A stretch of 15,117 nucleotides of DNA from positions 1 to 15,117 of the forward strand of contig JBFMGO010000132.1 in assembly GCA_040752695.1 (NCBI GenBank), given 5' to 3'. Source of the stretch: a bacterium. GTDB lineage: Bacteria > SZUA-182 > DTGQ01. This document shows, one piece after another, positions 93-15,005 of the stretch. A program made the position numbers and the translations under genes. Every line of letters starts with the position of its first letter. The first letter of the stretch is position 1. The notes under the pieces were generated by a model. The model worked only from the letters and a program-made list of their open reading frames with translations, searched no databases and was not told the DNA's origin.

Positions 93-914
93 ATGAAAGA
101 TGCAACGAAAATCAGGTTTTCCAGAAACAGAAGAACTGTCAGCGCCTACATGAAGGTAGCACACAGCATACCCTTTACTCATATGACAACCGAAATACGG
201 GTGCCCGGCCTGAAAGCTCTCTGTAAGAAGTACGATGTTACCTACACCATAGCAATCATGAAGGTTATCGCAGCGGCAAGGGAGAAATACCCGGTCATGA
301 GCAGTATCCTTGGCAGGGACCTTACTTTGAGAAAGCAGCTCTATCTTTGCGATCATGTAGACATGGCCCTGGCCATCGAAAAGCAGGAAGAAGATGAATT
401 TTTTGCAACCTTCGCCGTTATTAAAGATGTTCATAATAAAACGCTGGAAGAGATAAGCACCGAAGTAAAAAGCCTGAAGGACTTGCCAAGGAGCAAGATG
501 CCGTTCGGGCTGATATTTTTGATGCTCAATTACATCCCTGACGTGGTGAAGCTTTTGATTTTCAGGATATTGCTCGAGATTCCTCCTCTTTATAAATGCT
601 TTTTCGGCACGGTTGGTCTCAGCACGTTGGGAAAATACGGGCTGACAAGTTTTGATACTCTCTTTGTCAATACCTTTGGCTATGCCGTCAGCAAAATTGA
701 AGAGAAGCAGATAATCGAGAATGGGAAAGCCCAGGTGGAGCCGGTCCTTTACCTGACCCAGACTTCTAATCACTGTGTTGCCGATGGTGCATTGGCAGCA
801 CGGGTTCTGGCAGAGATTAAACGGATTTTGGAGTCAGGGGAATATATTTCAATCTGCGAGCCGGTAACTCATTCTCTTCAAAATTATAGTCGCAAGATGG
901 CCTGCAATAATTAA
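93..914 (+). CDS. Stand-alone 2-oxoacid dehydrogenase E2-like acyltransferase catalytic domain (no lipoyl or E3-binding domain), 273 aa
   Basis: Purine-rich RBS (GAGGGAGAAG) before the ATG. E2-core-like segments: RNRRTVSAYM...IP, 'IMKVIAAAREKYP', 'IKDVHNKTLEEIS', 'GTVGLSTLG', and C-terminal 'LTQTSNHCVADGALAARVLAEIKRILE', matching the HxxxDG catalytic motif (canonical DHRxxDG); His227 at 771-773. Confidence 0.8.
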   Translation: MKDATKIRFSRNRRTVSAYMKVAHSIPFTHMTTEIRVPGLKALCKKYDVTYTIAIMKVIAAAREKYPVMSSILGRDLTLRKQLYLCDHVDMALAIEKQEEDEFFATFAVIKDVHNKTLEEISTEVKSLKDLPRSKMPFGLIFLMLNYIPDVVKLLIFRILLEIPPLYKCFFGTVGLSTLGKYGLTSFDTLFVNTFGYAVSKIEEKQIIENGKAQVEPVLYLTQTSNHCVADGALAARVLAEIKRILESGEYISICEPVTHSLQNYSRKMACNN

Positions 915-1008
915 ACTTTCCATAGACCTGTCCAAAGAAAGAGCAACGGCAATGTGACGATAAAAAGGGTGGGCTGTCATGGGGAAGGAATGTATGTTCG
1001 TTCAGGTA

Positions 1009-1032
1009 CCCTCCTTTTTTCTAAAAGGGGGG
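1009..1032. repeat. Short imperfect inverted repeat (CCCTCCTTTT-ttct-AAAAGGGGGG)
   Basis: 10-bp arms with one T:G mismatch, about 95 nt downstream of the E2-like gene stop. Could be a weak terminator or a dispersed palindromic repeat. Confidence 0.4.
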
Positions 1033-1086
1033 ATTTGTATGAGCTTATCCCAATATACTTCCTCTCCCCTTTTCTCATGAGATCCA

Positions 1087-1115
1087 TTGATCATCGGCTT
1101 TTTCCATTATATAAT
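1087..1115 (+). promoter_or_regulatory. Putative sigma70 promoter for the AT-ER / carboxylase operon
   Basis: TTGATC (1087-1092), 17-bp spacer, perfect TATAAT (1110-1115). Predicted TSS near 1122. Confidence 0.6.
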
Positions 1116-1167
1116 ACTTAAATAATACACCAATAAGTGTCCTTTATAGGGAAAGGCTCAACCGGAC

Positions 1168-1214
1168 GGGTAATTCCCGCGGCCTGTAATGAATACAGGC
1201 CGCGGGAATTACCC
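1168..1214. repeat. Perfect 21-bp GC-rich inverted repeat (hairpin) in the putative 5' leader
   Basis: GGGTAATTCCCGCGGCCTGTA (1168-1188), loop ATGAA (1189-1193), TACAGGCCGCGGGAATTACCC (1194-1214). Extends imperfectly with GAC/GTC and TCAAC (1158-1162)/GTTGA (1226-1230). No U-tract follows. Confidence 0.9.
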
Positions 1215-1318
1215 CGTCAGTGTCAGTTGATTCTATCTGGTCGCATATTTACTGCGGCTCATACTGAAAATAACTATCCATCAGGTAATTTCTATTGCTT
1301 TGGGAGGGAAAGGGATAC

Positions 1319-3673
1319 ATGGCAAAGGCGTTTGTTTTTCCAGGGCAAGGATCGCAGAAAAAGGGAATGGGCGGAGAGCTTTTCGATCTTTTTCCGGAAT
1401 TGACGGAAAGAGCGGATAAAATCCTGGGTTATTCCGTGAAAGAGCTTTGTCTGGAAGATAGCCAGAATGTCCTCAATTTAACTCAATATACTCAGCCGGC
1501 ACTTTATACCGTTAATGCACTCATGTATTACCGAGAGATCAGAGAGACTGGCCAAAAGCCGGATTATGTGGCGGGGCATAGCATGGGGGAATATAATGCC
1601 CTCCTGGCAGGTGGAGCATTCGACTTTGAAACCGGTTTGGAGCTGATTCAAGTAAGATCCAAGCTGATGGCGAAAGCCGCAGGCGGTGGCATGGCCGCGG
1701 TAATCGGACTGGATGAAGAAAAGATTAAGGGAATCTTAGGTGATAGTGGCCTGGAAAGTATCGATGTGGCCAATTTCAATTCTCCATCTCAGACGATACT
1801 ATCGGGATTGAAAGCGGACATCGATCGGGCCGAAAAAGCTTTTAAGGAAGCAGGTGCCCGGTATATTCCCTTAAAGGTGAGCGGTGCTTTTCATTCACGG
1901 TATATGGAACCGGCCAGAAAAGAATTTGTGCGGGTCTTAGAGCTTTTTAAATTTTCGGATCTTGCCATACCGGTAATATCGAATGTCGAGGCACGGCCCT
2001 ATACGAAAGAAAAAATCAAGCGGCTCCTGGCTGACCAGATCAATCACTCCGTCAAATGGACCGAAAGTATTCGCTACCTCATGGGAAAAGGAGTAACGGA
2101 ATTCAAAGAGATCGGCCCTGGTACGGTATTGACGGGATTAGTCGCTCAAATCCAAAAAGGATCAAAGCCTCTCATCATGAGGGATAAGGCTACCCCTCCA
2201 GCAGGTACAGGAGAAACGCGGCCAAACCGGGAGACGACGGGGGCACAGGGAAAAGCCGCAACGACAGCAACGACAGCAACAATAGCAACAAGAGCAAAAA
2301 CTGCACCCGCCACACCCGCCATAACGGCTTCATCCCTGGGCAGTAAGGAATTCAAAGAAGAATACCGCATAAAATATGCCTATGTGGCAGGAGGGATGTT
2401 TAAAGGTGTTGCTTCCAAAGAACTGGTAGTGAAAATGGGCAAGGCGGGACTCATTGGTTATTTAGGCACAGGAGGTGTGTCTCTTGATCGGGTTGAGGAA
2501 TCGATTCGGTACATCCAGAAAGAACTTCGCAGTGGCGAAGCTTACGGCATGAATCTTTTATGCAATCTGCAAGAGCCCCAACAAGAGGATAAAACCGTGG
2601 ATCTGTTCCTTGCCTATGGGATTCGGAACATCGAAGCCGCAGCTTACATGCAATTGACGCCCAGCTTAGTGCGTTTCCGGTTGAAGGGGATACATCGCAA
2701 GGCTCATGGGGAAATCATTGCCCCCCATAAGATCATGGCCAAACTATCCCGCCCGGAAGTAGCCGATTTCTTTATGAGCCCTCCGCCCGAGAGGATCATC
2801 CGGAAATTAGCGGGAGAAGGAAAATTGTCCCATGAGGAAGCTGCGTTAGGGAAAGAAATACCCATGGCTGACGATGTCGTTGTTGAGGCGGATTCCGGCG
2901 GGCACACCGATCAGGGGGTGTCCTCTGCCCTCATGCCTGCCATAATGGCTTTAAGAAATGAAAAGATGAAACAGTACGGCTACAGGAAAAGAATCAGGAT
3001 CGGGGCTGCGGGGGGCATTGGAACGCCGGAAGCCGCTGCGGCAGCCTTTATCATGGGAGCGGATTTCATCCTCACCGGCTCGATCAATCAATGTACCGTA
3101 GAGGCAGGCACGAGCGATGCGGTAAAAAATATGCTCCAGGATATCAATGTACAAGATACGGACTATGCACCGGCAGGCGATATGTTTGAACTGGGTGCAA
3201 AGGTTCAAGTCCTCAAAAAAGGCGTTTTTTTTCCAGGCAGGGCGAATAAATTGTACGACCTTTATATTCATCATAATTCCCTGGATGAAATCGACGAGAA
3301 AACAAAGAAGCAGATCCAGGAGAAATATTTCAGGCGAAGCTTCGAGGAAATATGGGAAGAAACAAAAGCCTATTGGCTCAAGCGAAATCCGGCCGAGATC
3401 GAAAAAGCACACTCAAGCCCCAAACATAAAATGTCTTTGATTTTCCGCTGGTATTTCGGGTACTCGACCTGGCTGGCCTTGACCGGAAACGAAGAGCACA
3501 GGGTCGATTATCAGGTCCACTGCGGACCGGCGCTGGGCGCTTTTAACCAGTGGGTCAAGGGGACGGAGCTTGCAAACTGGCGAAACCGCCACGTCGATGT
3601 GATTGCCGAAAAGGTAATGCAAGAGACAGCCGCTTTACTGAACGAGCGGTTTCAAGCGCTCCAGCAGGGATAA
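1319..3673 (+). CDS. pksE: Trans-acting malonyl-CoA:ACP acyltransferase fused to a PfaD/FabK-type flavin enoyl reductase (PksE/BaeE/DfnA-like), 784 aa
   Basis: Start moved from TTG 1295 to ATG 1319, which follows GGGAGGGAAAGGG. AT motifs: FVFPGQGSQ, TQPALY, GHSMG (Ser88), Arg113 25 residues after the Ser, GAFHS (malonyl-type), 'EIGPG'. ER motifs: 'LGSKEFKEEY..KYAYVAGGM', 'VEADSGGHTD', 'AAGGIGTP', 'TGSINQCTVEAG', 'APAGDMFELGAKVQVLK', 'DYQVHCGPALGAFNQW'. Confidence 0.92.
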   Translation: MAKAFVFPGQGSQKKGMGGELFDLFPELTERADKILGYSVKELCLEDSQNVLNLTQYTQPALYTVNALMYYREIRETGQKPDYVAGHSMGEYNALLAGGAFDFETGLELIQVRSKLMAKAAGGGMAAVIGLDEEKIKGILGDSGLESIDVANFNSPSQTILSGLKADIDRAEKAFKEAGARYIPLKVSGAFHSRYMEPARKEFVRVLELFKFSDLAIPVISNVEARPYTKEKIKRLLADQINHSVKWTESIRYLMGKGVTEFKEIGPGTVLTGLVAQIQKGSKPLIMRDKATPPAGTGETRPNRETTGAQGKAATTATTATIATRAKTAPATPAITASSLGSKEFKEEYRIKYAYVAGGMFKGVASKELVVKMGKAGLIGYLGTGGVSLDRVEESIRYIQKELRSGEAYGMNLLCNLQEPQQEDKTVDLFLAYGIRNIEAAAYMQLTPSLVRFRLKGIHRKAHGEIIAPHKIMAKLSRPEVADFFMSPPPERIIRKLAGEGKLSHEEAALGKEIPMADDVVVEADSGGHTDQGVSSALMPAIMALRNEKMKQYGYRKRIRIGAAGGIGTPEAAAAAFIMGADFILTGSINQCTVEAGTSDAVKNMLQDINVQDTDYAPAGDMFELGAKVQVLKKGVFFPGRANKLYDLYIHHNSLDEIDEKTKKQIQEKYFRRSFEEIWEETKAYWLKRNPAEIEKAHSSPKHKMSLIFRWYFGYSTWLALTGNEEHRVDYQVHCGPALGAFNQWVKGTELANWRNRHVDVIAEKVMQETAALLNERFQALQQG
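2258..2302 (+). repeat. 9-bp in-frame tandem repeat (5 degenerate copies) in the AT-ER linker
   Basis: GCAACGACA GCAACGACA GCAACAATA GCAACAAGA GCAAAAACT, encoding ATT-ATT-ATI-ATR-AKT. Confidence 0.85.
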
Positions 3674-3758
3674 TGATAAAAGATTATAAGAATTGAACAA
3701 TACATTCAATCGCTTCGATAAATAATATATAAAAGGAAAAAGCGAGGGGAAGGAGCCT

Positions 3759-6700
3759 ATGGAGAGGACAGAGCAGGAGAGGCCAATACTTGATGGCGCT
3801 TCACGGATAGGAATTATCAATAGAGGCGAGGCAGCTATTCGCTTTATTCGGGCAGTCAGAGAGTATAATGCCCTTCATCAGACGGCTCTTACTGCCGTTG
3901 CGTTTTACCTCGACATTGAGCAGGAAGCACCCTTCGTGAAAGAGGCTGACGAGGCGTGTCCATTATCGAAACTGACGGGCTTTGCCAGGGTCAAGGGATC
4001 TGCCTACCTCAACAAAGAGCTTATGCTGGAAGCTCTTTTATCCGCACAGTGTCAGGCGGTCTGGGTAGGGTGGGGATTTTTATCCGAAGATGCCGCCTTT
4101 GCCAGGATGGTCGAAGATTCGGGTCTTGTTTTCATCGGCCCTTCCTCCGAATCCATGGCCCTTTTAGGGAATAAAATATCAGCCAAGGAATTGGCGCAGC
4201 GTGCCCGCGTTCCCATCCTGCCCTGGAGCGAAGGCCCTGTCGCTGGTGTGGAGGAAGCCCGCAGGGTTGCCGACAGGATCGGCTATCCGCTCATTGTCAA
4301 AGCAGCCAATGCGGGAGGCGGTCGCGGCATCCGTTTTATCAGAAAACCTGAAGAATTAGCTGCTCAATACCAGGCAGCCAGAGAGGAATCACTTCGCACG
4401 GCCGGCAACGACATCGTATTTATCGAGCATCAGGTAGTAACGGGGCGTCATCTCGAGGTACAGGTGCTGGCCGACCGCTATGGACAGGTACAGACCTTCG
4501 GTGTCCGCGACTGCTCGGTGCAGCGGAGGAATCAGAAGATTATCGAAGAGACGCCGCCGCCACATTTTGATCGGCAAATGATTGAAGATATGGAACAGGC
4601 CGCTGCCCGTCTTATCGTCGAAGCAGGATACGAAAGTGCCGGTACCGTAGAATTTCTGTACGATGAAGATCAATCTCAATTCTATTTCATGGAAGTGAAT
4701 ACCAGGCTTCAGGTGGAACATCCTATTACCGAGCAGCTCTACAACGTCGATCTGGTCAAAGGGCAGTTACGGGTCGCAAGTGGTCAAAGATTACCGGAAT
4801 TGACGGAAAAAGAGGAAGATATTTACACTCCAAGAGGTTGCGCTATCGAAGTGCGCCTGAATGCGGAAGATCCTGACCGGGAGTTCATTCCTGCTCCCGG
4901 CAGGATCGTTCTGTTTAAAGCTCCATCCGGTCCTGGAATCCGGGTGGATTCCGGCATAGAGCAGGGCAGCGCTATCCCTTCGGAATTTGACTCCATGATC
5001 GCTAAAATAATCGCTTATGCACCCTGCCGGAGCGAAGCCCTGGCACGTCTGGAACGTGCTCTTCGGGAGATGCACATAAAAATCGAGGGAGGAACAACCA
5101 ACCGGGCCTTTCTGCTAGGGCTTTTACAGTGCCACGGAATCCGTCAGGGCGGCGTTCATACGCGCTTTGTCGAAGACCTTATCAAGGGAAAGGATCAATT
5201 GCCAGAGGGTCAGGGGCAGGATCATCAAAAACAGATTATCAAGCGCAACACCTGGAATATCGCTCTTTTAGCCTGCGCTATTGAACAGGCTATTTCACGA
5301 TATCAGGAAGAGCTTATTCATTTCAGGCAGCAATGGAACAGCATCGGCCAGCCCAGGGATATACCTTTGTCTTGCGGCTATGAAGTGACGCTGCAACTAC
5401 AAGGGCATACCTATGTATTTCAGGTCAAGGCACTCGGCGGGAATATCTTTCATCTGAAAATCGACGGGCAGCTTCTGGCAGTTCACTATAGTAAACGAAA
5501 TCATGAAGCAATCATGCACTGTGGCAATAAACGGTATGCCATTCAAATGGTCAGCCGTGATGACGTTCTGCAATGTGAGATAGATGGGATCCCTTATTAT
5601 GTCGGAATAGAATCGAACGACCAGATTAAGGCTCCCTTTCCGGCAGTGGTAATTTCCATTGCCGCTGCACCTGGCCAGGCTGTACAAAAAGGCGACGTGT
5701 TATTGCAGCTTGAAGCCATGAAAATGCTCATGAGTATCGAGGCTCCTAAGAGCGGCAAAGTAAAAACAATCTCAGTCAGGGAAGGGGAGCAGGTGTATTC
5801 AGGACAGGCCCTGGTACAGATGGATACGGGGGAGCAATCCGAATCTGAAGAAGAATCAGGCCAACCGCGAGTATCTTTCGATCTCCAAGAAATACATGAC
5901 ACCGCGCGTAAATGGCAGATCCTGGAGCGGGAGTTTCTGGCTGTTTTCTTCGGGTTCGATTACGATGAGGAAGAGGAAACCGCAGCGGCGATTTTTGAGA
6001 AACTCATTGAGTTTGTCAGGGAGAATCCTCAACTTCAGAAGCAAATCATCACCTGTTTCTTATCTGCTTTGGAAGCGTATGCAGCAATTGAGATCCTCTT
6101 TTCCCATAAGAGAATCGAGTCCGAAGGCTTTGCCGGTGCAGCGAGCTATCAGGAATTGCTCATGCACTTTTTTATACGCAACGAGTGTCAAAAGGAAGGA
6201 TTGCCTCAGGAATTTCTGGATAGTCTTGAGCGTGCTCTGGTGTGGTATCCGCAGGGAGGGCAGAGCGAAAAAGAAAGGTTCGATCAGGCGCTGTTTCGGA
6301 TTTACAAGTCACACGCTCACCTTGCGACCAAACAAAATTTACTTCGCTCTATGTTGTGTTCCATGAAGGAGTTTCCCGACATCAGGATATTCAGCCAGAG
6401 AGTGTCCGACCTGCTCGATGAAATCGCCCTGATCTCCCAGAACCAGTTACCCGTCCTGGCTGATGCAGCGATCCAGGCACGGTATCACCTGATTGACCGT
6501 ATGTTTCTGGAAACCATAAAGGAGGAGCGAAAAGGGCAACTCGAAAGATTGGTTGAATTAACGGTGCGTGGAGATGGGAATGGAGATGAGGATAAAAAGG
6601 AGCGGTCCGGATTAATGGACCGTATCGCTAATACCGGCCATTACATGGTGTTCGAACTGCTCTTTCTGGCTCTTGATCCGGTCAGAGAGAAACGGGCGCT

Positions 6701-9440
6701 GGCCATGGAGTTGCTTGGCAAGTATTTTAACCGTGACAGGAGAATCCTTTCTGCCGGGATGGAAGAGGAAAACGGGTTACTCCTCTGCCGCGTAGACAGC
6801 ACCAAAGGGAGAGAGAATTACGAGACGTTCGTGATCGTCTCCAATGATAAGACCTGGGCAAAAGACGCGGGAAAAATTCATCGTTATCTGGAAAGAGCAA
6901 AGATGAAGGAAAAACCGGAACTTATCGTGCTCATTGCAGCCGAAGGAGGCCAGGAGCAGGAGAGGGAGGAGCGGATTATTCAACACCTTTACCGGCAGGT
7001 TTTCCCCGTATCCTGGTGCTGTCTTGGGCTGTTTTCCTCCCCTTTCCCGAAGGGTGCGGAAGAGAGGTTTTCAGGGAATAATGCCTGCTCGTATCGGACC
7101 TTTACCCTTGATCAGGAAGAAAAATGGCGTGAAGATTTCCTCCGGTATTCATTTAACCCTCTTTTTTACCGCGAGTTAAAGATACACCTTCTTTCCCGGT
7201 TCAACCTGAAGATCCTCTACTCAAGTGAGTCCGCCTATCTTATTTCGGCAGTTGCTCAGAGTAATCAAAATGACAGGCGGCTTATCGCCTTGGTGGATAT
7301 CCCGGAAAGCCGTGCCGAAGTTGGCGAGGATAATTCCATATCGAGGATTGTCGCCTTTGACCACGCGCTGACGGAAGCGATTTACGCCATGAGTGTCGAG
7401 CGGTCAAAAGCAGATGGATCTTTCTATCTCAATAGAATCATTGTTCATATTCATCCACTGCTCACGGTAAATATGCAGCAGATTACCGCTTATGCCCATA
7501 AACTCACCCCACGGGCAAGGGAACTGGGACTGGAAAAGGTGATCATCCATACACGCCGCAGGAAAGAGAACGATGATACCATCCACGAGTTCGAACTTCA
7601 TTTTACCAATATCTCTCAGGATCATTTTGCCATGGACGTTTGTCTCCCATCGACCAAACTCCTCGAGGCGATGACCGATGATTATATTTCCAGGGTGGTA
7701 AGAGCACGGCAAAGAGGGAATGTATACCCTTATGAGATCATTAAAATGATCACTCATCTCGAGCTCGGTCAAAGCGGAGACATGAATTTCATAGCAGGAA
7801 ACTTTGAAGAATATGATATTCAGGTGAACGAGAACAGGGATACGGAAGGTCAGGAAACCATTTCCGTCAAGGCAAGGCCCTATGGCCGGAATAAGAGTAA
7901 TATCGTATTCGGTATTATCACGAACTTTACGAGGAACTACCCCCGGGGCCTTAAGCGGGTGATTATTCTTGTGGACACCACCCGCGACATGGGCAGTCTG
8001 GCCGAGCCCGAATGCCGCAGGGTAATCGGCGCTCTGGATCTGGCCGAACAGTTACGGATTCCGGTAGAATGGCTGCCCTTATCGGCAGGCGCAAAGATAG
8101 ATATGAACAGTGGTACGGAAAATTTAGACTGGACAGCGCGGGTGCTCAGGGCGATCATAGAATTTACCCAGGCAGGAGGTGAAATCAATATGATCGTGTC
8201 TGGTGTCAACGTCGGAGCGCAATCGTATTGGAATGCGGAGGCGACCATGCTCATGCACACCCAGGGAGTTCTTATCATGACAGAGGATGCCTCCATGCTC
8301 CTGACCGGTAAAAAGGCGCTGGATTTTTCCGGGAGCGTATCGGCTGAAGATAACATCGGCATCGGTGGAGTGGAGAGAATCATGGGCCCCAACGGTCAGG
8401 CGCAGATGAAGGCAAAAAACCTTTCCGAGGCATACGAGATTCTTTTCCAACACTATGACTTCACCTATAGAGAACCCGGAAAAGTTTTTCCCGCACGTCA
8501 ATCCAGCAAAGATTCGCCCGACAGGGATATTACTCTTTCTCCCTATAGGGATCGCCTGGACCAGGGATTTACCTGCATCGGGGATATCTTCAGCCAAAAG
8601 TACAATCCGGAGAGGAAGAAACCCTTCGATATGCGGCAGGTAATGCAGGCGGTCATTGATCAGGACCTCGGCTTTCTGGAACGGTGGCAGATGATGAAGA
8701 ACGCAGAAACCGCCATTGTCTGGGAAGCACGGATAGGCGGCTTCGCAGCAGGAATGTTAGGGGTGGAAAGCAAGCCCCTGGCCAGAATGGGAAGGATTCC
8801 TCATGACGGACCGGAGTCCTGGACCGGAGGAACGCTGTTTCCTCAATCTTCAAAAAAACTGGCTCGTGCCATCAACGCCTTCAGCAAACGACTTCCCCTG
8901 GTTATCCTGGCCAATCTTTCAGGTTTCGACGGCTCTCCGGAATCTTTGAGGAAATTGCAACTGGAATTTGGCGCCGAAATTGGCCGGGCTATCGTAAATT
9001 TTCAGGGACCGATCGTTTTTGTCGTAATTGCGCGCTATCATGGAGGTGCATATGTCGTGTTTTCCCGCACGCTGAATCCCTTCCTGAAGTCGGCGGCTCT
9101 GGAAGGCGCCTACGCTTCGGTCATCGGAGGCGCACCGGCGGCGGCTGTCGTTTTCCCCCGCCAGGTTTTGAAAGATACCTATGCGGATCCCCGTATCAGA
9201 GAGGCTCAAAGCCGTCTGGACAATGACCCGGAGTTTAGACAAAATGATTTTGATGATCTTTTCCAGAAGATACACACGGAAAAACAGACTGCCCTCGCGC
9301 AGCGTTTTGATCAGATTCACTCCGTAGAGCGGGCAAAAAAAGTGGGTTCCATCGAGGACATCGTTTCTTCCCAAGACCTGCGTCCTTACCTGATCAGGTC
9401 GATAGAGGAGGGAATGAGGAAATTTATGGCGTCAGGGTAG
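3759..9440 (+). CDS. Single-chain multidomain biotin-dependent acyl-CoA (probably acetyl-CoA) carboxylase: BC - BCCP - central region - CT, 1893 aa
   Basis: RBS AAGGAG. Biotin carboxylase motifs NRGEAAIR, WVGWGFLSE, GGGRGIR, RDCSVQRRNQKIIEE, EVNTRLQVEHP, FDSMIAKII (about 3800-5180). Biotinylation motif EAMKM (Lys655, 5721-5723). Central region of about 600 aa. Carboxyltransferase from about 7700, with 'GSLAEPE...SAGAKI', 'GGTLFPQSSKKLARAI', 'LANLSGFDG' and 'GGAYVV'. Confidence 0.92.
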   Translation: MERTEQERPILDGASRIGIINRGEAAIRFIRAVREYNALHQTALTAVAFYLDIEQEAPFVKEADEACPLSKLTGFARVKGSAYLNKELMLEALLSAQCQAVWVGWGFLSEDAAFARMVEDSGLVFIGPSSESMALLGNKISAKELAQRARVPILPWSEGPVAGVEEARRVADRIGYPLIVKAANAGGGRGIRFIRKPEELAAQYQAAREESLRTAGNDIVFIEHQVVTGRHLEVQVLADRYGQVQTFGVRDCSVQRRNQKIIEETPPPHFDRQMIEDMEQAAARLIVEAGYESAGTVEFLYDEDQSQFYFMEVNTRLQVEHPITEQLYNVDLVKGQLRVASGQRLPELTEKEEDIYTPRGCAIEVRLNAEDPDREFIPAPGRIVLFKAPSGPGIRVDSGIEQGSAIPSEFDSMIAKIIAYAPCRSEALARLERALREMHIKIEGGTTNRAFLLGLLQCHGIRQGGVHTRFVEDLIKGKDQLPEGQGQDHQKQIIKRNTWNIALLACAIEQAISRYQEELIHFRQQWNSIGQPRDIPLSCGYEVTLQLQGHTYVFQVKALGGNIFHLKIDGQLLAVHYSKRNHEAIMHCGNKRYAIQMVSRDDVLQCEIDGIPYYVGIESNDQIKAPFPAVVISIAAAPGQAVQKGDVLLQLEAMKMLMSIEAPKSGKVKTISVREGEQVYSGQALVQMDTGEQSESEEESGQPRVSFDLQEIHDTARKWQILEREFLAVFFGFDYDEEEETAAAIFEKLIEFVRENPQLQKQIITCFLSALEAYAAIEILFSHKRIESEGFAGAASYQELLMHFFIRNECQKEGLPQEFLDSLERALVWYPQGGQSEKERFDQALFRIYKSHAHLATKQNLLRSMLCSMKEFPDIRIFSQRVSDLLDEIALISQNQLPVLADAAIQARYHLIDRMFLETIKEERKGQLERLVELTVRGDGNGDEDKKERSGLMDRIANTGHYMVFELLFLALDPVREKRALAMELLGKYFNRDRRILSAGMEEENGLLLCRVDSTKGRENYETFVIVSNDKTWAKDAGKIHRYLERAKMKEKPELIVLIAAEGGQEQEREERIIQHLYRQVFPVSWCCLGLFSSPFPKGAEERFSGNNACSYRTFTLDQEEKWREDFLRYSFNPLFYRELKIHLLSRFNLKILYSSESAYLISAVAQSNQNDRRLIALVDIPESRAEVGEDNSISRIVAFDHALTEAIYAMSVERSKADGSFYLNRIIVHIHPLLTVNMQQITAYAHKLTPRARELGLEKVIIHTRRRKENDDTIHEFELHFTNISQDHFAMDVCLPSTKLLEAMTDDYISRVVRARQRGNVYPYEIIKMITHLELGQSGDMNFIAGNFEEYDIQVNENRDTEGQETISVKARPYGRNKSNIVFGIITNFTRNYPRGLKRVIILVDTTRDMGSLAEPECRRVIGALDLAEQLRIPVEWLPLSAGAKIDMNSGTENLDWTARVLRAIIEFTQAGGEINMIVSGVNVGAQSYWNAEATMLMHTQGVLIMTEDASMLLTGKKALDFSGSVSAEDNIGIGGVERIMGPNGQAQMKAKNLSEAYEILFQHYDFTYREPGKVFPARQSSKDSPDRDITLSPYRDRLDQGFTCIGDIFSQKYNPERKKPFDMRQVMQAVIDQDLGFLERWQMMKNAETAIVWEARIGGFAAGMLGVESKPLARMGRIPHDGPESWTGGTLFPQSSKKLARAINAFSKRLPLVILANLSGFDGSPESLRKLQLEFGAEIGRAIVNFQGPIVFVVIARYHGGAYVVFSRTLNPFLKSAALEGAYASVIGGAPAAAVVFPRQVLKDTYADPRIREAQSRLDNDPEFRQNDFDDLFQKIHTEKQTALAQRFDQIHSVERAKKVGSIEDIVSSQDLRPYLIRSIEEGMRKFMASG

Positions 9441-9464
9441 GAGCTTATGCCGCAAGAGGCAGAT

Positions 9465-9544
9465 GCTTTCAGTTATGAGACAGTTTGAGGGAGCTTTTAT
9501 GAGGCAGTATGAGGGGCGCTTTCAGTTATGGGAGTTGTAGAGGG
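9465..9544. repeat. Three degenerate ~25-28-bp direct repeats downstream of the carboxylase stop
   Basis: GCTTTCAGTTATGAGACAGTTTGAGGG (9465), GCTTTTATGAGGCAGTATGAGGGG (9493), GCTTTCAGTTATGGGAGTTGTAGAGGG (9518). The 13-mer GCTTTCAGTTATG is exact at 9465-9477 and 9518-9530. Confidence 0.7.
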
Positions 9545-9609
9545 CGGCAGGTTCAACCTGTTGCTGGCCGTCCGGTTCTGCTGTGCCTGGCCTGAAGAGC
9601 GCCAGGCAC
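9544..9609. terminator. Two hairpins between convergent genes (possible terminator or 3'-end protection structures)
   Basis: GCGGCAGG-ttcaa-CCTGTTGC (9544-9564, two G:U pairs on the + strand) and GTGCCTGGC-N9-GCCAGGCAC (9583-9609, perfect 9 bp). Neither has an adjacent clear U-tract. Confidence 0.4.
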
Positions 9610-9650
9610 TATGAGCCATTTGTTGGAGGGCATTACCGTGGGTTTTTTAA

Positions 9651-9929
9651 TTATTCCCACTGGTTTATATCGAGTCTTTTAAGAACTTGTTCCCTGTTGG
9701 ATAGATCACCGATAATTCGTTCTGCAGGGGATGGCAACTTCTTGATCAGAGTCGGAGTGGCAACGATTTTTTCTTCCGCAGTTGCCTCCGGATGTTCCAG
9801 CAGATCGATAATGGTCAACTCGTAGTTCCCTTTCAATTCATCCTCGCATATGCGGTGCATATTTTCTATTGCACGTTTTGATCTCGTGGTATGATCAAAA
9901 ACATATAATCTGAATACATATTTATCCAT
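9651..9929 (-). CDS. kaiB: KaiB-family protein (circadian clock KaiB / thioredoxin-like fold), 92 aa
   Basis: YVFRLYV...RSKRAIENMHRICEDELKGNYELTIIDLLEHP...EEKIVATPTLIKKLPSPAERIIGDLSNREQVL matches the KaiB signatures ATPTL and RIIGDLS over the full length. Confidence 0.93.
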   Translation of the reverse strand: MDKYVFRLYVFDHTTRSKRAIENMHRICEDELKGNYELTIIDLLEHPEATAEEKIVATPTLIKKLPSPAERIIGDLSNREQVLKRLDINQWE

Positions 9930-9994
9930 TTATTATCTGCCCTTTACATTCAAGAGGAGTGTATTTATTACTGCTCGATGGTAATTTTCCCATT

Positions 9995-10059
9995 GATTAC
10001 ATCTGCACTGGTCATATCATATCTGTTCTGGTCATATCTGCACGGATTATATCTGCATC
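9995..10059. repeat. ~15-bp degenerate tandem repeat spanning the response-regulator stop codon
   Basis: ATCTGCACTGGTCAT (10001), ATCTGTTCTGGTCAT (10021), ATCTGCACGGATTAT (10036), ATCTGCATC (10051). Confidence 0.75.
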
Positions 10060-10424
10060 TCCAGGATATCTCTGGTTACCGAAACGATCTGGGTACTGTC
10101 TATGGGTTTGCTGATGATTTCGAACTGAAGACCTTCCTCTCTGGCAACCTTGAGTTGTTGAAAAAATTCATTATGGAAGGCTGTTACAATGTAAATGGGC
10201 ATATCCTGGTCTATTTTTCTCAGTTCTCTCAACGTCTTTATGCCATCCCAGCCTGGCATCTTGAGATCGAGAAAGACTAAATGATACTTATTATCTTTCT
10301 CCATCATAACCCCCTTTTCCCCCGATTCTGAGGTATGCACCAAATAACCTGTATCTTCGAGGGCGAGGGTAAAGGCATCCCGTATTCCCTTGCTATCATC
10401 GATGACTAAGATACGTTTACTCAT
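10047..10424 (-). CDS. Single-domain response regulator (CheY-like receiver), 125 aa
   Basis: ILVIDDS acidic pair, FLDLKMPGWDG phospho-acceptor Asp, VTA and SKP all intact; no output domain. RBS AAGGAGG. Start overlaps the kinase stop by 8 bp. Confidence 0.93.
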   Translation of the reverse strand: MSKRILVIDDSKGIRDAFTLALEDTGYLVHTSESGEKGVMMEKDNKYHLVFLDLKMPGWDGIKTLRELRKIDQDMPIYIVTAFHNEFFQQLKVAREEGLQFEIISKPIDSTQIVSVTRDILEMQI

Positions 10425-12228
10425 CGTAATCCTCCTTTTGTCTTTCTATGGGTAATAAGATTTTAAACGTGCTCCCCGATCCCGCTTGACTCTCACAGCC
10501 CATTTTGCCTTTGTGTGCGGCTATGATGCTCCGGCAGATCGAAAGACCCAGTCCCGTTCCCTCTCCTGTAGGTTTCGTCGTGAAAAAAGGATCGAAGATT
10601 TTCTGCAGATGCTCAGGTGCAATACCGCAGCCGTTATCTGCAATTGACACTTCTACCCGATCGTTCTGACGGACAGCCTGAATGCATATCTCCTGCCTTT
10701 CTTTTTCCTTTACGGCATCCAGAGCATTGTGAACCAGGTTAAAAAACACCTGTTGGATATTATTTACCTTCATCCAGACTTCAGGTAAGGTTTCATCAAT
10801 ATCTTTTTGTATCGAAACGTTCTGTTTTTCAATACGATAGGACATTAACTTCAAAACTCTGTCGATGAGTTCGGTGCAGCTTGCTTTCTGATAGCCCTCT
10901 TCCCCCTCTTCCTCCCGCCGTGAAAAGGTTAAGAGGTCTTTTATAACATCTATGCATCTTTTCGTTTCGTTTTCGATGTCGAGAAGAGGCTGATAGGTCG
11001 ATGCTTCACGAGTGGTATGTTTGAGACAATACTGGGCATAGTTGAGTATACTCATCATCGGATTATTCATCTCATGAGCGACACCGGCAACCATGGTACC
11101 CAGAGCGTTCATCTTTTCTGACTGGATGAGCTGGTTCTGAGACTCCTTGAGTTTTTCGTACGTCTCCTGGAGTGCTTCATAGGCATCCTTGAGCTCCTGC
11201 TGTGCCTGCATGCGGGTATAAACCTGTCTGGTAAGCTGTTCATTGGTACTTTCAAGATCCCTTGTGCGCTCTTTGACCAATTGCTCCAGATAATCCTGAT
11301 ATTTTGTCAGTTCCTCCTCAGTCTTTTTATGCTCATCGATTTCGTGATGAGCTATATTTATCTCAGTAAGTCCCTGCATGGGAATGGCCACCAGTGGCAT
11401 GACATAACTGAAAAAATGGGCAATATGAGCTATATTGAATAAAGAGTCGAAAAGATGCCTGGAAAAAGACATATAAACCTGCCCGCAGAAATTAAGCAGT
11501 ATGCTGTTCAGAATCAAGCCGGAAAAGACATCCCTTTTGGCAAGAAACCGCTTCAGGACCAGGATAAAGGCGATGGCGAACAGTATGGCCGAAAAAAAAT
11601 CAACCGGCCGGGATATAAACCTTTCAGGATAGATAAACTGCGGGAGAGGAAGGAAAAAGGATGACGCTGTTACACTTCCGCTCAAAACGAAGACACCGAG
11701 GGAAAAAAAGATGGTTCTTTTAACTCTTTTTTTATCTGGCCCCCACTTTACATGGTCCAAAAGGGGTGCCGCTATGATCATAGCGGCAAGAAAGCATTTA
11801 CCGATAACATAACTGCACGGTATGAAACGCGAAAATTGGGTATGAGAACTCGCAAAGAGCGGTCCGTATGACAATATCCCATGAATGAAATCACTGCTTG
11901 CCGCTATGCTGAAGCCAAGGCCGATGAGCAGGTAATAGGGATTATTCAATACCAGAAATGACATTGTGGAAATTACACCCACTCCAATGGCGATAAAAGT
12001 CTGCACGATTTCCAGGAGCGAGTGAGAATCGTGGGTACTGATCCAGGGAGAGGAAAACGCCCAGGGCTTCATCAGCAGGAAGAGCAGAGCGATAGCAAAG
12101 TAAGAGATAAAGTAGCCGTTAATGCTCTTCTTGTCAGTCCGGTAATGAATGAGGTTCCCGCCATTGTGTTTATTTTGACAGTGCTGCACCTGTATTTTTT
12201 TTCGAAAGGAAAAATTCATTATAGACAT
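10417..12228 (-). CDS. Membrane sensor histidine kinase (multi-TM MASE3-like N-terminus, coiled coil, NtrB-type HisKA and HATPase)
   Basis: About 8 hydrophobic segments with 'HSLLEIV...LIGLGF...DFIHG'. '[25 protein letters not shown]' H-box, '[13 protein letters not shown]' N-box, 'DNGCGI', '[21 protein letters not shown]'. The start codon is uncertain (no clear RBS at 12228), and the MASE3 label is from resemblance only. Confidence 0.9.
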
Positions 12229-12278
12229 GGTGAAAAATTTCCAATTTTGCCTTGAATGAGATTGAGAAACCTCTCTTT

Positions 12279-13265
12279 TTATCGTAACTGTTCACCCTCT
12301 CCATCGGATAATAGAGGGAGTGTATCCTTTAATCTGCTTAGGTTTTTTAGATCCTGCCCAAAGGGATTGAGAAGAGGTAAACTCCTGGAAGTTGATTTTT
12401 CGCTGAGATTATATTTCACGAAAGAAGCCAGTGTTCCCGAAGGACCAAGGTCGAGATAGAGATAAGGTGCCTGTTCTTCCAGTACCTGAATCGTTTTCTG
12501 AAAATAAATGGGAGCACGGACAGTTTCCCAGAAATAGTCTCGGGGAAGGAAGGGAAGGACATTGGCATGTGAACATGAAATAAAACAGATGTTCGGATCA
12601 TCGAGAACAAGGGTGTTGAGAAAATTTTTATAAGCTGCTGCGGCAGGATCAATAAGTGATGAATGAAAACCACGGGAAACATCCAGCATTTGGAAAATAA
12701 TTTTTTTCTCCTCCAACAAAATCTGGATATCGGAGAGCGACTTTCTGTCACCTGATACGACAAAATGAGAAGGAAAATTGACAGCAGCTAATTCAAGGTG
12801 TTCATGAAAGAGCGGATTTTCAAAAAAAAGGTCCGGAGAATGAATAACCGCCATCATCCCTCCTTGAGGACAGAGCGTTTCCAGGGCTTCGGCCTGCCTG
12901 ACCACCGCAGTCAAGGCCGTTTCGAAGGGGATAACACCTGCGATGGCAGCTGCTGCAAATCCGCCCAGGCTTGCACCAAGAACATAGTCGGGGTTTATCC
13001 CGATTTCCATCACTACTTGCGCCAATGCATATTCAACTAAAAAGATAGCCGGGTGAGTGTATAAGGTATGGCTGAACTGATCGCTTTTTTTATATACATT
13101 ACTATAGATCTGGGAGATTATTGATACACCGGTCATCTCGGATACGATCCTGTCCCCATCCAGTACATTTTTCCGAAAAACCGGATTCTGCTCAAAGAGT
13201 TCCCTTCCCATCTGATAATAATGGGATCCCTGTCCGGAAAACATAAAGATAGTGAATTGATTCAT
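12279..13265 (-). CDS. pksD: PksD/BaeD/PedC-like acyltransferase-fold acyl hydrolase (proofreading enzyme of trans-AT PKS), 328 aa
   Basis: RBS GGAGG. 'IFMFSGQGSHYYQMGRELF', 'HPAIFLVEYAL', 'PDYVLGASLG' (Ser99), Gln124 where malonyl-ATs have Arg (Ser+25), 'GFHS', 'YLDLGPSGTLASFVKY'. Confidence 0.85.
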   Translation of the reverse strand: MNQFTIFMFSGQGSHYYQMGRELFEQNPVFRKNVLDGDRIVSEMTGVSIISQIYSNVYKKSDQFSHTLYTHPAIFLVEYALAQVVMEIGINPDYVLGASLGGFAAAAIAGVIPFETALTAVVRQAEALETLCPQGGMMAVIHSPDLFFENPLFHEHLELAAVNFPSHFVVSGDRKSLSDIQILLEEKKIIFQMLDVSRGFHSSLIDPAAAAYKNFLNTLVLDDPNICFISCSHANVLPFLPRDYFWETVRAPIYFQKTIQVLEEQAPYLYLDLGPSGTLASFVKYNLSEKSTSRSLPLLNPFGQDLKNLSRLKDTLPLLSDGEGEQLR

Positions 13266-13436
13266 AGCACGTTAAGACCTCCATCTCTATGATTCAATGA
13301 AGCTGCAAGAATTGTGCCCTTTCTGATACTCACCCCTTTGCATATCTCACCCTCTTTGTCTTTTTTTCCTTGAGCGCAATGCCGTTTCAGTCCTGTTCGG
13401 ACTTCTTTCTGCCTGTATTCCCTGTATAATACGGGA

Positions 13437-15005
13437 TTAGGCCGCTCCTTCAGTTATGGCAGGTCGTTTGAGGGGAAATATTTTTTGGCTGCCATGCCTT
13501 TTTTTGCGGTCAGACACTCCGGCACTGTCGGCATCTTGACTACTACCCACGATAGCGTTCAATTCCTGTGCATGACGGTCAAATTCCTCAGCAGTGCCAG
13601 CCAATTCCCCGGAATTCGCGGCACTTTGCTGAATCGCCTTATCCATCTGCGCTACCGCCATGTTCACCTGCTCAATTCCCTGCGACTGCTCCCTGAAAGC
13701 GACGGCAATTTCCGTCACCAGCACTACGACCTTGGCCATGCTTTCCTGTACGAGGGCCAGGGATTTGCCCACTTCGCCTGTAATGTCAACGCCTGAATCA
13801 GCGTTTTTCTGTGCTCCCGCAATCAAATCGGTTGTGGTCCTGGCCGCTTCCGCACTGCGCTGAGCCAGGCTTCGTACTTCTTCGGCTACCACGGCGAAGC
13901 CTTTGCCTGTCTCACCGGCCCTCGCCGCCTCGACTGCAGCGTTCAGCGCCAGTAAGTTGGTCTGAAATGCAATCTCGTCTATGACTTTGATAATTTTTGC
14001 CGTCTCTGTGGACGATGTCTTTATTTTTTCGATGGCATCGCTCATGCGCTCCATAGCTCCCACTGCACCTCCAAGTTGAGACTTTACCTCTTCCATCAGA
14101 AGGTTAGCCTTATTCGTATTGTCAGCATTCTGCCGTGTCATAGAGGCCATTTCCTCAAGTGACGAGGATGTTTCTTCTATGCTTGAAGCCTGTTCTCCGA
14201 ACCTTTGAGCCAACTGCTGGCTGGCATGGGATATTTGTGCAGAGCCTTGAGTAATCTGTTCGATAATAAGCTTAAAGGTCCGTCCGGTTTCTTCCAATTC
14301 GTGGGTACTGAGTTTATTCAGGCCACGGAACAGGTCTTTCAGCGGTCCTGTAATTCCCAGAGCGATCATCAAGGCAATAAGCGATGAAATGAAAATGCCG
14401 CTGAAGCCGAGGACAAACATCATCTTCGTTCGCGACCTGATCAATGCAGAGGCTTCCAGTTCACCGACCCGGTTTCTTTCTGCTGTCATGTGCACAACCT
14501 GGTCTGTTGCTGCACGGTGATCCTCATATTCCTTCAGCATGATACCATAAGCCAACTCACGAGCAAGCTCTATGTTTCCGCTTTTCACGGCTGGTATGAA
14601 TTTCGTGGTCATAATATCAAAGAACGCAACCGCTGGATAGTATGACTGCTCAAGGAAAGTAGATTTGATTTGGCCCGCAGTGAGTTCTTCCTGCCAGAAA
14701 CTGTGCCTGGACATATACTCGGCCCTTAAGGCATCACTTCTTTCAATCAGAGCCGCAAGAGCAAGCCGGTCGTTGTTTCCCAACATCTGCAAAGCAACGA
14801 GATAGGATTCGATGATGTATTCGGGTGGGGGAAGAATATCTGCAATCAGGTCTTTTCCCTGAATAATATGCTGATAAACCGGACCATTCACTTTCAGCTT
14901 ATCTAACGTGACAGTAGATAATCCCCAAAACAGGACAAACGAGAGTATAAAAGTAAAAACGAGTAAAACGATTCTGGCATTCAGCCCCAGTTTTGAAAGT
15001 CTCAT
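13437..15005 (-). CDS. Methyl-accepting chemotaxis protein (two TM helices, periplasmic sensor domain, MCP signalling domain), about 522 aa
   Basis: Start moved to ATG 15005, which follows AGGAG. TM1 [18 protein letters not shown], periplasmic '[27 protein letters not shown]', TM2 [22 protein letters not shown], methylation-type helix [10 protein letters not shown], hairpin tip [40 protein letters not shown]. Confidence 0.95.

Follow-up and report, generated by a model that had tools for sequence, protein, structure and literature searches.

The bacillaene pks set of Bacillus subtilis includes the acyl hydrolase PksD (PDB 8AVZ) and PksE (PDB 5DZ7), which combines an acyltransferase (AT) with an enoyl reductase (ER) (PMC11775670). 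SACE_4237 of Saccharopolyspora erythraea is an essential housekeeping acetyl-CoA carboxylase (ACC) that carboxylates acetyl- and propionyl-CoA; its single chain belongs to a type of ~1,850-1,900 aa in which biotin carboxylase (BC), biotin carboxyl carrier protein (BCCP), the central region and carboxyltransferase (CT) follow one another (PMC6491548). The clock protein KaiB, encoded in kaiBC or kaiABC clusters, contains a Gly residue implicated in its fold switching (PMC5520375). Counterparts of all these proteins occur together in the window analyzed here, the whole of contig C132 (15,117 bp) from a 6.05 Mb bacterial genome assembled in 239 contigs and 96.6% complete (G000), whose uncultured phylum comprises 20 genomes including this one. 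We read the window as two independent gene sets brought together, likely by shuffling, namely the supply-and-clean-up tail of a trans-AT polyketide synthase (PKS) and a separate signaling cassette with a chemoreceptor, and we give this reading a probability of roughly 0.72. The polyketide genes (AT-ER, hydrolase, E2-like protein and carboxylase) are called the toolkit below, and the histidine kinase (HK), receiver (RR) and KaiB genes the cassette. The features are:

93..914, + strand: E2-type acyltransferase core, matching PF00198 only
1319..3673, + strand: PksE-type AT-ER, matching TIGR00128 and TIGR02814 (TTG start at 1295 in the open reading frame (ORF) finder; likely start ATG 1319)
3759..9440, + strand: single-chain acyl-CoA carboxylase of 1893 aa, BC-BCCP-central-CT, assigned from families and motifs
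9651..9929, - strand: orphan KaiB, PF07689
10047..10424, - strand: single-domain receiver with Asp53; 8 bp shared with the kinase gene at its stop
10417..12228, - strand: MASE3 membrane-sensor histidine kinase (MASE3-HisKA-HATPase_c, from domain matches)
12279..13265, - strand: PksD-type, AT-like acyl hydrolase with Q12, GASL with S99, Q124, F200 and H201
13437..15005, - strand: methyl-accepting chemotaxis protein (MCP) with two transmembrane helices and a four-helix-bundle-like sensor (alternative start 15023)
1009-1032: terminator-like hairpin, after the E2-like gene and 5' of the promoter match
1087..1115, + strand: sigma-70-like promoter match (10/12, consensus only) upstream of the AT-ER gene

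These are the eight genes and families that the original prediction had named from the letters alone, and the gaps it gave along the minus-strand run of MCP, hydrolase, kinase, receiver and KaiB (171, 50, -8 and 117 bp) agree with the ORF coordinates. The plus- and minus-strand runs converge over 210 bp. All eight genes are real. The seven with an ortholog (all except the MCP gene) are maintained, the proportion of nonsynonymous differences against orthologs being well below that of synonymous ones; dN/dS was 0.05-0.18 in eight of nine ortholog comparisons, the ninth being saturated at synonymous sites.

No ketosynthase (KS) or acyl carrier protein (ACP) match was found on C132, and the expectation that the megasynthase must lie elsewhere is borne out by contig C69 of the same genome. 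Of 18 KS-family matches in the genome, three are on C69, in two ORFs with no AT (PF00698) match, and all three retain the Cys and HGTGT motifs. The Pfam order is FeeM-like, GT2 (a family 2 glycosyltransferase), KS-DH-KR / ACP-KS-DH-KR-ACP-KS-DH-KR-ACP-R-GMC, FadL, where DH is dehydratase, KR ketoreductase, R thioester reductase and GMC an oxidoreductase; the genome thus encodes PKS modules without an integrated AT, the mark of a trans-AT PKS. C69 breaks off inside the FadL gene, leaving about 310 of its 420-450 residues, and no other place in the assembly yielded the missing ~120. On C132, 92 bp precede the E2-like gene. Among relatives and metagenome loci, six include sequence upstream of the E2-like gene, and in five of them (G005, G007, G012, L085 and L086) FadL precedes it by 30-150 bp; L083 is the exception, and L084, too short, was left out. 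In four of those five the R/GMC end of a PKS precedes FadL, and the AT-ER gene follows the E2-like gene within 2.5 kb in three of five loci with downstream sequence, so that the order in relatives is PKS-FadL-E2-like-(AT-ER). Because C69 ends in FadL, C132 starts just before the E2-like gene and relatives keep the FadL-E2 order, C132 appears, with less assurance than the assignments above, to continue C69 across a few hundred unassembled bases.

Synteny also ties the supply genes to this line. In G002, of the same genus, one contig carries AT-ER and carboxylase genes and, 4.4 kb upstream of them, a remnant of the C69 line (~80% identical) shortened by deletion; that AT-ER is the closest relative of the window AT-ER (82%). 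With the FadL-E2-AT-ER order in relatives, this upholds the proposal that the window holds the accessory (supply) set of an uncharacterized trans-AT PKS, which also came through the sequence tests of its PksD-like, PksE-like and carboxylase proteins. The G002 copy (C50 66500-83200; L022, L023) is decaying: its PKS has large internal deletions, its AT-ER is split, its carboxylase contains stops, and metK and ahcY are inserted. In G000, the first PKS ORF on C69 (11267-17209, L001) carries an insert of ~600 aa after KS1 without GHSxG or a Pfam match. An MshEN-like repeat in the insert (residues ~769-820 of the ORF) is kept in two G007 orthologs, and the pattern is unmatched in G012 and G005. Should signals control the PKS, the insert would be a better candidate than KaiB.

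Among 113 PDB sequences the best match of the hydrolase is B. subtilis PksD (E 1.7e-84, against 8e-38 for the next). Acyl hydrolases are diagnosed by G(A/S/V)SL in place of GHSL, Gln or His in place of the malonyl-binding Arg, a Ser-His dyad, Phe200 and Gln12 (PMC11775670). The window protein has all of these, with Q12, GASLG at 97-101 (S99), Q124, F200 and H201 agreeing with PksD in identity and numbering. In a tree of 16 local homologs, containing no reference protein, five hydrolases split from eleven ATs at 100/100. By these residues the minus-strand AT-like protein is a PksD-type acyl hydrolase, and acetyl-ACP hydrolysis is its predicted activity. The AT-ER protein scores 362.5 bits with TIGR00128 (cut-off 260.9) and 718.1 with TIGR02814 (cut-off 449.25), thus passing the thresholds for FabD and the PfaD family. 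Like a PksE-type malonyl AT with a PfaD-family ER, it contains GHSMG, GAFHS and the Arg that binds malonyl; a ribosome-binding site precedes ATG 1319, the probable start. Other AT-ER genes were seen in these genomes. G000 has a second on C17 (66210-69411, L005; 74% identical, GC content at third codon positions 0.38), followed by a phosphopantetheinyl transferase (PPTase) gene near the contig end. G002 has a second directly before an AT-less PKS and beside a squalene-hopene-cyclase-like gene (C71 8115-23195, L061). In G007 a fused hydrolase-AT-ER of ~1,100 aa (C49 205868-209164, L035) is preceded by a PP2C phosphatase gene and unrelated kinase/receiver genes, and among the several AT-less lines of this genome is one that includes a run of beta-branching-like genes.

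The carboxylase aligns end to end with a 1,873-aa Pseudonocardia protein (37% identity over 1,930 columns), and the best 20 of 39 PDB matches to its central-CT part are eukaryote-type single-chain ACCs, a ranking of PDB matches and not a tree. We considered a dead ATP site and rejected it: the BC motifs and the AMKM biotin site are intact, and the BC motifs agree with those of solved BCs. Pfam found no PF08326 (ACC central domain) in the protein, and the region aligns with homologs that carry PF08326. One ~200-kDa chain ordered BC-BCCP-central-CT, with end-to-end actinobacterial homology and a CT nearest to eukaryotic ACC, defines the SACE_4237 or eukaryote-like type; the window carboxylase is of this type by its sequence, and carboxylating activity is predicted. 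The likeness to SACE_4237 runs through the type and through the Pseudonocardia protein, with which the alignment was made. G000 also encodes AccA (C1), an AccD-like CT (C12), AccC (C62) and FabD (C91). Because AccA, the AccD-like CT and AccC are encoded elsewhere, the window enzyme is a second carboxylase.

The two gene sets part company across relatives, which were searched as sets of 20 (the other 19 genomes of the phylum plus 1 outsider) and 40 (those 19 plus 21 outsiders). Five of 20 relatives (G002, G003, G005, G007 and G012) have an AT-ER, and these five are also the ones with the hydrolase. KaiB occurs in three (G002, G004 and G013, the last beside a genuine KaiC), the kinase sensor region in two (G002 and G004) and the MCP sensor region in none of the 20. 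The HK-RR-KaiB cassette was found in three gene orders at four loci: the window (9651-12228), G002 (C24 66802-69220) and two in G004 (at the ends of C14 and C31, and on C180). One G004 copy, divided between two contig ends, reads KaiB-HK-RR; the other reads RR-KaiB-HK, and its kinase has no MASE3 match. In G004 (95% complete) no AT-ER, hydrolase, E2, carboxylase or PKS was found, and G003, G005, G007 (98% complete) and G012 have toolkit genes with no KaiB or kinase ortholog. The sole relative with both sets is G002, where the hydrolase, the AT-ER/carboxylase pair and HK-RR-KaiB are on three contigs: the hydrolase gene is between a UDG gene and a gene for a 358-aa protein, an LVIVD gene comes after KaiB, and the carboxylase gene faces nrdG/nrdD. 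Values of dS to G002 are alike across the blocks (1.26-1.56), in keeping with vertical inheritance and shuffling afterwards. Since 14% of G000 is no more than 3 kb away from a kinase, receiver or MCP match, adjacency of the enzyme and signaling groups need not exceed chance. The HK-RR-KaiB genes and the MCP gene are therefore probably, from gene order and distribution, unrelated neighbors of the polyketide genes.

Several observations weigh against this reading, and they are taken here with the explanations they would favor. The phylum has only 20 genomes, several of them incomplete, and kin are not independent. There is no direct sequence overlap between the end of C69 and the start of C132, the L083 homolog of the E2-like protein has no PKS within 10 kb, and the client is not uniquely assigned, given the AT-ER with PPTase on C17 and a hybrid PKS-NRPS (nonribosomal peptide synthetase) with a shortened AT on C100. 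The enzymes could then be a shared, dispersed toolkit serving several lines, among them the C69 PKS and the C100 PKS-NRPS, with C132 unattached to C69. Hydrolase, AT-ER and carboxylase genes do shift position independently among relatives, the single G007 hydrolase-AT-ER fusion has the closest AT-less line of that genome ~50 kb away, a promoter-like site lies upstream of AT-ER, and the C100 AT covers only positions 1-125 of 319 in Pfam. Against this, the C69 end in FadL and the C132 start reproduce the FadL-E2 order of the informative loci, and shared use is itself compatible with a C69-C132 join; we regard a detached shared toolkit as quite improbable. The C100 locus (4560-19145, L003) was noted in its own right: its AT keeps GHSIG, is apparently more than 100 residues short and may need a trans AT.

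The carboxylase also bears on how the supply genes are read. Both G007 copies are away from PKS genes, among unrelated neighbors, and the type enzyme is a housekeeping ACC that accepts propionyl-CoA too (PMC6491548), as would suit an enzyme of general fatty-acid or propionate metabolism that follows AT-ER by chance. This is improbable in our view. A conventional multi-subunit ACC is present in G000 as well, the AT-ER-carboxylase order is retained in G002, and the single-chain carboxylase occurs in only 3/40 genomes (G002, G005 and G007), all three of which have trans-AT parts (AT-ER, hydrolase).

The remaining objections concern the signaling genes. The hydrolase and kinase genes share a strand, the hydrolase 50 bp upstream and no clear terminator between the two, the fused hydrolase-AT-ER of G007 also has kinase/receiver genes upstream (non-orthologous ones), and the G002 kinase is ~110-190 bp from a contig end, which places its upstream neighbor outside the sequence. 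A direct join in G002 of the hydrolase contig (C66) to the kinase contig (C24) was unsupported, since the two share neither 12-mers nor a reading frame that would match; a looser link between them is conceivable. The original prediction had gone further and proposed a control module in which a KaiB-linked phosphorelay might gate the PKS, the minus-strand run being in effect one operon. The close spacing on one strand, an intact PksD-type hydrolase and a KaiB with no KaiC to serve in G000 speak for this proposal, and co-transcription of the hydrolase with HK-RR-KaiB in G000 is possible. However, the arrangement is not conserved. Unlinked signaling and pksD/pksE genes in relatives were what the original prediction had named as refuting it, and G002, the one relative with both sets, shows just this. 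Because the sets are unlinked in G002 and otherwise in different genomes, KaiB control of the PKS is unsupported, and gating by KaiB or the MCP was rejected on synteny and distribution. None of the 48 close kinase homologs listed is on a 35,183-bp contig to which homologs of the E2-like protein and the carboxylase are tied by its size alone. The receiver has no output or DNA-binding domain, and signaling genes are common in G000 (101 kinase, 75 receiver and 9 MCP matches). The MCP, by sequence an ordinary four-helix-bundle receptor, cannot be assumed to feed the kinase as part of a control string: MCPs signal through CheW/CheA, and the CheW-domain genes are on C2, C6, C20 and C208, none of which is C132. 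We consider a KaiB-gated operon highly improbable. A reciprocal neighbor swap between G000 and G002 (nrdG/LVIVD against KaiB/carboxylase) was also considered and counts as a hint only, the LVIVD genes being 54% identical.

As a second gene set, the cassette has features of its own. The window KaiB scores 92.2 bits with PF07689, falls under the NCBIfam cut-offs for circadian KaiB and has a T. elongatus-type KaiB as its best PDB match (E 7e-24). KaiC searches of G000 (96.6% complete) gave only weak partial PF06745 matches, and a search with the G013 KaiC matched nothing; elsewhere, G004 shows one weak match and G002 a KaiC-like protein that is distant (28%). The window protein has Arg at the position of the fold-switch Gly of cyanobacterial KaiB, and Arg or Ala replaces this Gly in three of the four cassette copies. 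We infer that the Arg substitution would lock the protein in a thioredoxin-like state.

The E2-like protein is the part with the least precedent. It matches PF00198 only, far below the E2 equivalog cut-offs, and has no lipoyl or E3-binding domain; it keeps the His-x3-Asp-Gly and G-x-x-x-x-S-x-x-G stretches of the E2 core, and His227 and Asp231 are invariant in 16/16 aligned homologs. Its fold matches the E2 catalytic core (chloramphenicol acetyltransferase fold; Atlas model 0.81, our own AlphaFold model being weak at pLDDT 60). A hydrophobic stretch (138-156) lies inside an insertion of about 30 residues (~138-170) relative to solved E2s. No E1/E3-like genes were seen among the neighbors at the loci read. 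Homologs at 67-72% identity occur in 3/20 relatives and four metagenome loci, in one of which (L083 5085-11422) an RND efflux operon and a TetR gene flank the homolog (71%). At E < 1e-30 a profile search gave 9 clusters, and at E < 1e-10 it gave 280; most of the rows listed are proteins of 250-290 aa. A plasmid search gave 11 distant records (23-28% identity). The protein is one of a wide class of stand-alone cores, 250-290 aa long and unstudied. Chloramphenicol acetyltransferase, which has the same fold, performs O-acylation. Of the roles considered, acylation of the released product at the membrane comes first, at nearly even odds; some other role is unlikely, and acyl transfer between CoA and the ACP thiol a shade more so. 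We hold somewhat more tentatively than membrane acylation that the protein could be a new PKS-dedicated acyltransferase, derived from a 2-oxoacid dehydrogenase and bearing a membrane-facing helix pair, which acylates the chain (or transfers between CoA and ACP) in a conserved FeeM-PKS-R-GMC-FadL-E2 envelope-lipid pathway with its own eukaryote-like carboxylase.

From the observed domains, motifs, AT-less synthase and gene order in relatives, fluxes, substrates and a product can be proposed along the following lines. By family knowledge, the single-chain carboxylase would make extra malonyl-CoA, the AT would load malonyl onto the three ACPs of C69, the ER would reduce enoyl intermediates in trans, and the hydrolase would strip stray acetyl groups from the ACPs. 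With less certainty, three KS-DH-KR rounds may extend an acyl starter and the terminal reductase may release an aldehyde or alcohol, which the GMC, FeeM-like, GT2 and E2-like enzymes would tailor. Most speculatively, the lipoyl-less E2 core might acylate the product at the membrane and FadL might carry it through the outer membrane. An envelope-type lipid is the probable product.

Some further features lie in the intergenic regions. The promoter scan that gave the site upstream of AT-ER found 23 sites against 18.2 expected, so the set is not significant. Between the E2-like and AT-ER genes lies a perfect 21-bp inverted repeat with a 5-nt loop (1168-1214), whose ~20 weak matches elsewhere in G000 suggest a dispersed repeat. 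The convergent gap between carboxylase and kaiB contains three degenerate 27-nt direct repeats (9465-9544). A search for structured RNA in the gaps gave a single sub-threshold Rfam match.

Every part of the system belongs to a known family. In the literature searched, which left most subscription papers and all supplements outside, we found neither the combination of a lipoyl-less E2 core with a reductase-GMC PKS end, nor any paper on a trans-AT PKS with a GMC oxidoreductase and thioester reductase or on PF00198 in a polyketide cluster. The window completes, by synteny, an uncharacterized short trans-AT PKS that several genomes in an uncultured phylum of 20 species carry, and supplies a testable parts list for heterologous reconstruction of the pathway. 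It offers a first concrete setting for the large unstudied group of stand-alone E2 cores, and places a SACE_4237-type carboxylase outside Actinobacteria as an extra, probably pathway-linked enzyme. Control of the PKS by a clock protein is unsupported; the orphan kinase-receiver-KaiB cassette is of interest in its own right.

Set beside the described systems, the toolkit is closest to the bacillaene pks set, with which it shares the hydrolase residues and the AT-ER makeup (PMC11775670). Here, in contrast, the hydrolase and AT-ER genes are 8.6 kb apart on opposite strands, and the client is a short three-module line with a reductase-GMC end, FeeM-like, FadL and E2-like partners, and a carboxylase included. 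The window carboxylase has the single-chain architecture of SACE_4237, which is the essential ACC of S. erythraea, whereas the window enzyme is an extra copy beside a PKS AT-ER (PMC6491548). With clock KaiB the window protein shares the KaiB domain; it differs in having no KaiC in G000, in traveling with a kinase and a receiver, and in the Arg that replaces Gly (PMC5520375). The E2-like protein shares fold, PF00198 and the catalytic His...Asp-Gly with the E2 core of 2-oxoacid dehydrogenases, and departs from it in its missing lipoyl and E3-binding domains, the absence of nearby E1/E3 genes, its hydrophobic insertion and its fixed place behind FadL. In outline the whole route resembles that to heterocyst glycolipids (hgl), with a separate ER, release by a thioester reductase, a glycosyltransferase and an envelope lipid as product (PMC11804610). 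However, the hgl synthases described there, of the polyunsaturated fatty acid type, carry a cis-AT and a chain length factor, whereas the C69 line is AT-less and modular, ends in GMC, and has a GT2 gene that, of the loci examined, only the one in G000 showed; the C69 line is thus not a member of the hgl family.

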